DNA of 44,694 nucleotides from a virus (IMGVR_UViG_638341196_000008), one strand, 5' to 3'. Numbered from the stretch's first letter, positions 12,769 to 13,671 are shown. Notes: generated by a model from the letters alone, not told the origin. Numbers and translations: made by a program.

Positions 12769-13671
12769 CTACTTAATATCAGAGACAGAATATTGTTTAT
12801 TGAGCGTATGGGTGGGAGTACCAATAACGATGCTACTTCCGTGGCTATGTGCGCCAGAGGTGACATTACCTACGGGATTTTCTGGATTAATCCGGTGTAT
12901 ATGCGAACCAGGGCGAAAACGGTTATTAGCCTGATGTTGTATCAGTACATCATCAGCCTGATGTTCAGGGTTAATACAGACTTGCCCGGAACGTGAGCAA
13001 CACGTCCGATAATCGCCGCATCCAATATATTTAGTATCCGCATAACGGCAAACAGAATTACCCGGACAGTATGCATATGTGCCAAATACTGCCGACTGGC
13101 GAGATTGTGCGTATTCCCAGTTAATTGATTCTGTTTTTTTATTAAAGTTATCCCATGCCTGCTTCATCTGTCGTGCAACACTTTCAAACGGCACCTGACC
13201 ACATCCGGCCCCCATTGCAGGGAATACCACTGTTTTTATTTTCATGTCTGTCGTTGCGTTTTTATTGTGCTGAAAGATGGCAAGCAGAGCGGCCCAGGTT
13301 GCGTTATATACAGCGTCTGTTCCGTCAATTGTCAACGGAACACGCATTGTTGGCGCATGTACCAGCCAGGGGTGATGATTATGCCCCGTTTCAATGACAA
13401 ATGCAGAACCTACAGGCTGTTCGCCGAGATATTCACGAAGAATATGATTCTGAACGCGGGACTGTAACTGAGTACCGAAGAATGCGGTAATGGCGGCATC
13501 AACGCCACCATCCATCAGGCCGAAACTATTTGCCGCACTTACCATGCAGTCAAATTGTCTGATTGTTTCAAATGGCTTTCCGACAATATTCACACTATCT
13601 GCATTTGCAAATATCCGTTTAAATGCTTCAGCCATTTCTGTTACTGGTGCAGAAAGAATGAGCGTAATCAT
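12769..13671 (-). CDS. Macro-domain (ADP-ribose binding/hydrolase-like) protein with Cys/His-rich C-terminal tail, inside the tail-fibre operon
   Basis: N-terminal region has macro-domain signature (AANSFGLMDGGVDAAI..., ...VVFPAMGAGCGQVP); C-terminus contains AHSHGSSIVIGTPTHT resembling the H-protein His motifs; own SD GAGG. Confidence 0.6.
   Translation of the reverse strand: MITLILSAPVTEMAEAFKRIFANADSVNIVGKPFETIRQFDCMVSAANSFGLMDGGVDAAITAFFGTQLQSRVQNHILREYLGEQPVGSAFVIETGHNHHPWLVHAPTMRVPLTIDGTDAVYNATWAALLAIFQHNKNATTDMKIKTVVFPAMGAGCGQVPFESVARQMKQAWDNFNKKTESINWEYAQSRQSAVFGTYAYCPGNSVCRYADTKYIGCGDYRTCCSRSGQVCINPEHQADDVLIQHQANNRFRPGSHIHRINPENPVGNVTSGAHSHGSSIVIGTPTHTLNKQYSVSDIK

Follow-up and report, generated by a model that had tools for sequence, protein, structure and literature searches.

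The window, as we call the whole stretch of viral DNA analysed here (IMGVR_UViG_638341196_000008; 44,694 nucleotides), carries a P2-like tail-fibre operon in which an intact ORF for a 300-residue protein lies between the tail-fibre gene H and the tail-fibre assembly gene tfa. The protein combines a macro domain with a C-terminal extension rich in Cys and His. The locus comprises the following features:

11567-12139, plus strand: gene for a hexapeptide-repeat 'serine acetyltransferase', GC 34%, converging on tfa
12147..12176, no strand assigned: 13-bp hairpin flanked by A and T runs, from a consensus scan only
12183..12760, minus strand: tfa pseudogene, identified by a Caudo_TAP match (E=5e-34) on the C-terminal 93 aa, a frame map and the intact tfa of F8704-2
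12769..13671, minus strand: macro-domain protein gene with a fibre-like tail (PHROG 2613), an intact 300-aa ORF with an ATG start and a TAG stop, the span including the stop codon
13084..13671, minus strand: macro domain, aa 1-196, Macro2/YMR087W-like by Pfam PF01661, AF2, Foldseek and profile
12943..13083, minus strand: Cys-rich module, aa 197-243 (YCPxxxxC...YIGxGDYRTxCxxSGxxCI..HQ), from the homologue alignment
12769..12942, minus strand: variable His-rich tail, aa 244-300, with GxHxH repeats at 257-259 and 275-277 and a degenerate third at 284-286, defined from 50 family tails
13690..15816, minus strand: tail fibre gene H, 708 aa as read, with Phage_tail_fib N-terminus, Phage_fiber_2 repeats and Collar

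The hairpin is likely a terminator shared by the converging tail-fibre operon and acetyltransferase gene. GpU and the tape-measure gene converge from the other side, a layout also seen in the P2-like Salmonella phages SEN4 and SEN5. No sigma-70-like promoter site was found upstream of the macro ORF, nor does it have a terminator of its own. GC content is 45% in the macro ORF, 50% in H and 48% in tfa, against 56-60% in the core tail genes. The acetyltransferase gene is equipped with its own promoter-like site (11487-11515) and a strong terminator, and may be a lysogenic-conversion gene. A P1-like phage-plasmid and a Mu-like Enterobacter prophage (51% identical) have the order fibre-macro-tfa-acetyltransferase too; the acetyltransferase is present in three macro-bearing loci, yet also stands beside stf-tfa without a macro gene. 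Elsewhere in the window, two 100%-identical inverted copies of an IS66-family element (2,730 nt; 30503-33232 and 40930-43659), with ORFs for an HTH transposase, TnpB_IS66 and DDE_Tnp_IS66, flank ~7.7 kb.

Set against phage Chuche and E. coli F8704-2, three tail genes around the macro ORF are damaged. H carries an A7 run at 13702-13708 where its relatives have A6, and the resulting frameshift makes it end in ...NTVKKHRI* with the loss of its last conserved residues; before that change it would have stopped at the TGA of 13668-13670, which shares bases with the macro ATG, and this ATGA overlap has been lost in the window. In the case of tfa, rightly called a pseudogene in the initial annotation, there is a 1-nt deletion near codon 10 (between 12731 and 12730) together with a TAG nonsense codon at 12465-12467. 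Gene J (16345-17161), whose damage like that of H had gone unrecorded, is split over two frames and has an internal deletion, with ~20 residues missing. The single-base indels in the A7 run of H and in tfa could in principle be sequencing errors, which is unlikely for the TAG codon and the J deletion. Both the macro ORF and the acetyltransferase gene are intact. In the closest complete E. coli genome, that of O39:NM strain F8704-2 (98.9% identity over 1.7 kb), tfa is intact and H is broken. Intact phages have the same gene order and F8704-2 an undamaged tfa, so what has happened to J, H and tfa is strain-specific decay of a P2-like prophage. This leaves the earlier suggestion that the module had been rewired without support, the fibre-macro-tfa order with its ATGA overlap being present in the intact Chuche, SEN4/SEN5 and Gifsy-1. 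The intactness of the macro ORF says little, since with four lesions in ~3.6 kb of neighbouring genes the expected chance of a lesion-free 903 nt is ~0.37; selective preservation of this ORF in the decaying prophage was considered and set aside as not significant (P ~0.37).

The macro ORF of the window is an ordinary member of its family inside this decaying prophage. Its identity is 98% to an E. coli cluster of 579 members (P0001) and 99% to its counterpart in F8704-2. It departs from other PHROG 2613 members by an insert of 4 aa (QHQA), by an extension of 7 aa at the C-terminus and by its degenerate third HxH, which reads GTPTHT where the relatives have GAHTHT; the insert and the degenerate repeat are features of a 300-aa E. 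coli variant. The extension goes back to a 1-nt difference at the 3' end of the gene (12769-12800), where Chuche reads …AAACAATAATTCTG… and the window …AAACAATATTCTG…: the TAA stop is gone and seven codons (YSVSDIK) are gained, which precede the Shine-Dalgarno sequence of tfa.

The macro signature that the initial annotation had recognised in the 300-aa ORF between H and tfa is upheld by profile search. The Pfam Macro model PF01661 matches aa 44-169 with E=9.5e-19 and 67.9 bits against a gathering cutoff of 22, and is covered in full (positions 1-118/118). Structure prediction agrees with this assignment. An AF2 monomer model built from a 69-sequence alignment has a pLDDT of ~90 across aa 1-196, and its top Foldseek match in the PDB is 1njr (yeast Ymx7/YMR087W; E=1.6e-9). 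There are 82 PDB matches at E<=1e-3, the best 50 listed being macro domains or design variants built on one; a search of the PDB with the family sequence profile again places 1njr on top (E=3e-6), and a BFVD fold search returned macro-domain matches only. Structure comparison hence assigns the domain to the three-layer alpha/beta/alpha macro fold.

On these sequence and model comparisons the domain appears closest to the Macro2 type represented by YMR087W, an ADP-ribose-1''-phosphatase. We call it Macro2-like, and not a proven member, because its score with the Pfam Macro_2 model PF14519 falls just below threshold (23.1 versus a cutoff of 27); many of its homologues have a precomputed PF14519 match. 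The phage and yeast proteins share the motifs VSxxNS[FY]G...GG[VF]D, HxPT and PG/AxGxG, with N80 and D90 of YMR087W aligning with N48 and D58 of the phage protein, and with H105 lying in the shared HxPT motif. They differ in that identity is only ~20% and in that the phage protein has in addition a Cys/HxH tail of ~105 aa and is encoded in a tail-fibre operon. The counterpart of H105 is reportedly H145 of YMR087W (Kumaran and colleagues, 2005), and the yeast residues matching N48, D58 and H105 are reportedly the proposed catalytic ones.

The pocket residues N48, G55-G56-V57-D58, H105 and G154-x-G156-x-G158 are all present in the phage protein. Across 69 sequences, which include distant cellular homologues (~45-50% identity), D58, H105, G154 and G158 do not vary, and N48 reaches at least 90% conservation. 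The macro domain is under strong purifying selection (dN/dS 0.08-0.20). YMR087W, the only studied member of the Macro2-type clade, converts Appr-1''-p to ADP-ribose and has no de-MARylating activity (PMC6397177). Since the pocket and the proposed catalytic residues are intact, residues 1-196 of the phage protein would most likely bind and hydrolyse a 1''-substituted ADP-ribose compound or mark.

Two other macro-domain identities were considered. A DarG-like identity, raised in the initial annotation, is rejected on profile scores: NF048014 gives 12 bits against a cutoff of 250, and the PADLOC DarG match reaches E=0.007 over 39 aa. No DarT partner adjoins the macro ORF, its neighbours being H and tfa. 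With DarG, AdfA and other phage-borne orphan antitoxin ADP-ribosyl hydrolases the protein shares a phage-borne macro fold and a possible counter-defence logic, but it belongs to another macro clade and to a late structural operon. The MacroD/YmdB O-acetyl-ADP-ribose deacetylases were likewise rejected, the best score with the NCBIfam PRK00431 models being 52.2 bits against a cutoff of 246.

The C-terminal extension falls into two parts. In the Cys-rich module (dN/dS 0.13-0.19), which AF2 models as a beta-hairpin at a pLDDT of 51-60, C202, C225 and C232 are invariant and C208 is nearly so among 18 enterobacterial homologues. The His-rich tail that follows evolves with indels and a dN/dS of 0.3-1.0; G255 and H277 are invariant or nearly so, and H257 and H259 are invariant in all four phage copies compared. 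In the window's protein, HxH occurs at 257-259 and 275-277, 18 residues apart, with the degenerate third nine residues further on. Among 50 distinct family tails, 47 have at least one HxH, 35 have two or three and 3 lack a strict HxH; the spacings are mostly 9, 11 or 18 residues, with 9 the commonest, and His makes up 13.5% of the residues. The AF2 monomer leaves aa 239-300 unmodelled (pLDDT <36), which is expected if folding needs partners and in itself proves nothing.

The likeness of this Cys/His-rich C-terminus to the HxH repeats of H, which had been proposed at the outset, is borne out by several comparisons. The H fibre has HxH at 660, 669, 678 and 687, a 9-residue period, and this period is common to the macro tail and the descending strand of the fibre needle, as is the consensus IGAHxH. 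The macro tail and aa 658-691 of H in the window can be aligned over 36 aa with 39% identity (E=4e-4), and the score beats 2000 of 2000 composition-preserving shuffles (z=4.9). Six comparisons of tail and needle from five loci gave z=4.6-7.3, with at most one of 2000 shuffles reaching the score, and in BLASTP the macro tail matches the needle strand of H in all seven loci. The tail thus has both regular HxH repeats and similarity to a fibre strand, the sequence marks of an HxH needle. In the T4 gp37 needle, HxH motifs coordinate iron along the trimer axis (summarised in PMC11705849). The macro tail departs from the needles of T4 gp37, lambda Stf and P2 H, whose descending strand it matches by local alignment to the cognate fibre, in having one to three repeats in a single stretch, without a collar, tip or fibre-type end, and in that the macro protein has no Pfam Phage_fiber match.

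At the DNA level, no similarity of the macro tail to the 3' end of H was found in any of the seven loci. Because the match is seen in protein and not in DNA in these seven loci, the resemblance appears to be old and maintained, and the comparison points away from a recent chimera. The tail has stayed conserved even between genera that are saturated at synonymous sites. Searching PDB sequences with it gave nothing significant; with the C-terminal 111 aa alone as query, the only homologues were fragments of the same family, and tblastn of the tail against phages found the same family only, plus one non-coding relic. The latter lies at 3501-3647 of the Salmonella phage SEN34, where a remnant of the Cys-rich region (57% identity over 49 aa) is found downstream of an acyltransferase-3 O-acetyltransferase gene and beside that phage's tail fibre and tfa, which suggests that the macro gene was lost from the SEN34 cassette.

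The protein matches PHROG 2613, a family with no assigned function, over its full length (E=7.4e-146; aa 1-271 on profile positions 1-272/274); at E<1e-5, 1,712 relatives are found in the databases. E. coli and Salmonella supply most of the best-scoring ones listed, and E. albertii, E. fergusonii, Citrobacter, Enterobacter and Erwinia are also represented; the relatives go under the NCBI names "macro domain-containing protein" or "phage tail protein". The gene is present in 128 of 5,426 complete E. coli genomes, with 22 placements on plasmids, and a fibre gene adjoins it in nearly every listed record of this survey. We inspected the context in seven independent loci. The same slot between fibre gene and tfa is occupied in P2-like phages (the window, F8704-2, Chuche and SEN4/SEN5), in the lambdoid Gifsy-1 of the model strain LT2 (STM2588.1n), in an Erwinia prophage, in the Mu-like Enterobacter prophage and in the P1-like phage-plasmid. 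At intact junctions the H stop overlaps the macro start (ATGA), and the macro stop overlaps or abuts the tfa start. The family members STM2588.1n of Gifsy-1, SEN5_19 and Chuche CDS0053 have 66-84% identity, the same synteny and the same stop/start overlap; the window copy differs in being flanked by pseudogenes. When aligned with the lambdoid phage ev099, which lacks the gene, the locus has no DNA beyond the macro ORF added between the 3' end of H (88% identical) and tfa (91%), and many lambdoid phages have H tips and Tfa that are ~88-91% identical in DNA without a macro gene. As the ORF is the sole extra DNA relative to the ev099 junction, the macro gene is an optional member of a mobile fibre-tip cassette, inserted with precision.

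Beyond these phages, an exhaustive search of representatives showed that the relatives are mostly stand-alone proteins of ~200 aa covering query residues 1-195 only, so that the Cys-rich module and the rest of the tail (197-300) have no counterpart in the ~200-aa cellular relatives. The same macro subfamily also occurs in four long, apparently eukaryotic fusion proteins (P0134, P0138, P0156 and P0213), two with phosphatase-like C-termini and one with an RNA-binding-like N-terminus as judged by eye from the sequences. Its occurrence in these eukaryotic-looking fusions shows the ~195-aa macro core to be an ancient, widely reused module. All tail-bearing copies inspected are in fibre operons, and none of the tail-less relatives that could be placed is, a correlation from a small sample of ~7 tail-bearing and 3 tail-less loci. 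One tail-less relative lies on an Anaerolineales chromosome amid ordinary genes, and another adjoins sugar-metabolism genes. The closest (P0121; 64% identity, 207 aa) is encoded by a phage, amid ParB_N and methyltransferase genes upstream of the terminase. This pattern suggests a link between acquisition of the tail and residence in the fibre cassette. We looked in the literature for macro domains at tail-fibre loci and came across no study of this family. What is new here is the extension and strictly conserved context of a known domain, the family itself having been catalogued already as PHROG 2613.

The explanation that we favour, though we place it somewhat short of probable, is that the macro protein is an accessory late protein, tethered or trimerised via its fibre-like metal-binding tail and acting on an ADP-ribose derivative. 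The macro ORF would then be the accessory third gene of a mobile distal cassette (fibre tip, macro protein, Tfa) in enterobacterial temperate phages. Since the ORF lacks a promoter-like site and either overlaps or adjoins the genes on both sides, its product would be made late, together with H and Tfa. The tail, a 4-Cys module and then one to three IGAHxH repeats that would copy the iron-binding fibre needle, most likely serves to hold the protein as a trimer around metal ions, or to dock it at or beside the fibre tip. Tfa possibly assists in this, the macro protein possibly being its second client, and docking would put the enzyme at the site where the fibre protein is assembled. The purpose that we favour is the erasure of an ADP-ribose-based host defence mark or signal in late infection. 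According to a 2026 preprint, sensitivity to type II Thoeris, which signals by His-ADPR, is determined in Pseudomonas N4-like phages by the side tail fibres together with their chaperones (10.64898/2026.06.04.730250); coupling such an enzyme to fibre production would thus have a concrete, if unproven, rationale. Several observations speak against this reading. The known ligands of macro domains are intracellular and fibres are not injected, so that the gain from tethering is not obvious. The synteny could reflect hitch-hiking with the most recombinogenic module and not a functional link. The HxH tail evolves fast and is without a strict HxH in 3 of the 50 tails, the correlation of tail with location comes from a handful of contexts, and the monomer model leaves aa 239-300 without structure.

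A more specific form of the idea, which we consider distinctly improbable, makes the protein a counter-defence Macro2-type hydrolase that is tethered by an Fe/His tail to nascent fibres acting as an immunity trigger and that erases TIR signals or ADP-ribose marks. Its targets would be gcADPR or His-ADPR of Thoeris-type TIR systems, or marks on the HxH histidines of the fibre itself. The preprint result on type II Thoeris applies to this reading as well.

The main rival, unlikely in our estimate and yet to be taken seriously, is a soluble Macro2-type hydrolase of late counter-defence or housekeeping function that merely hitch-hikes in the cassette, its tail being a generic metal-binding or oligomerisation appendage that makes no contact with the fibre; the substrates could be ADP-ribose-1''-phosphate, TIR-derived ADPR signals or ADP-ribosylated targets. 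It accords with the conservation of catalytic-type residues in common with cellular homologues, with the placement of the closest tail-less relative in a phage accessory region and with the fact that H tips and Tfa of ~88-91% identity work without the macro gene, and for phage macro and NADAR enzymes a counter-defence use is either established or has been proposed (PMC7824862; PMC11825919). However, it leaves the IGAHxH motif and the 9-residue needle period of the tail unexplained, as it does the restriction, in the contexts sampled, of fibre-operon residence to tail-bearing copies, and the translational coupling in a late structural operon in place of early expression. The initial annotation had also thought of a fibre chaperone or adhesin, and a non-catalytic accessory of this sort, either a tip adhesin or cap (compare gp38 of T2-type phages) or an extra chaperone with the macro fold as a binding module, is a rather improbable solution. 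This would fit with the gene lying between H and Tfa, with a tail that is hypervariable in the manner typical of host-range modules and with the NCBI name 'phage tail protein' borne by many members, although the literature searched gave no experimental support for that name. The pocket residues match the conservation seen in cytoplasmic homologues from cells, which speaks for the ancestral nucleotide ligand and not a new surface ligand. P2 G, lambda Tfa, Mu U and gp38 of T2-type phages are likewise encoded directly downstream of the fibre gene and co-expressed with it, but the macro protein has no sequence or profile relationship to them, a genuine Tfa gene follows the macro gene, and the ORF shows no Caudo_TAP, tail-fibre assembly PHROG or other chaperone or adhesin signature. 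Unlike such chaperones and adhesins, the macro gene is optional for closely similar fibre tips, being dispensable for the H/Tfa pairs of many lambdoid phages, and an essential chaperone role is hence unlikely.

That the gene might instead be a moron, expressed in the lysogen to aid the host and kept intact amid decaying tail genes, we regard as very unlikely. Its integrity while J, H and tfa are broken in the window, and again in F8704-2 with its broken H, could be read in this way, as could its GC content, low against the core tail genes. But H and tfa share the lower GC, the chance of an undamaged stretch of this length is considerable as calculated above, and the gene has neither an upstream promoter-like site nor a terminator of its own. 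The chimera put forward in the initial annotation, if taken as recent, is largely refuted and by now barely credible, and so is functionless junk from tail-fibre recombination. Tail-fibre loci are recombination hot spots, and the last seven codons do stem from the 1-nt difference to Chuche; against this, family members are found in E. coli, Salmonella, Erwinia, Enterobacter and Citrobacter, their dS is saturated and their dN/dS low, the architecture is conserved, and the tail has no DNA similarity to the 3' end of H. Among the earlier proposals, that of an ADP-ribose-processing enzyme is still a live reading.

Macro domains have a central part in ADP-ribose signalling and in the conflict of viruses with their hosts, and we found no earlier case in the literature of a macro protein tied to a phage tail-fibre module. 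The family is common, travelling with the most mobile host-range cassette through at least four named phage types and many Salmonella, and it joins a conserved enzyme pocket to what looks like a copy of the metal-binding motif of the fibre. Its role could reveal a new accessory activity of tail fibres, or a late counter-defence linked to a structural trigger.
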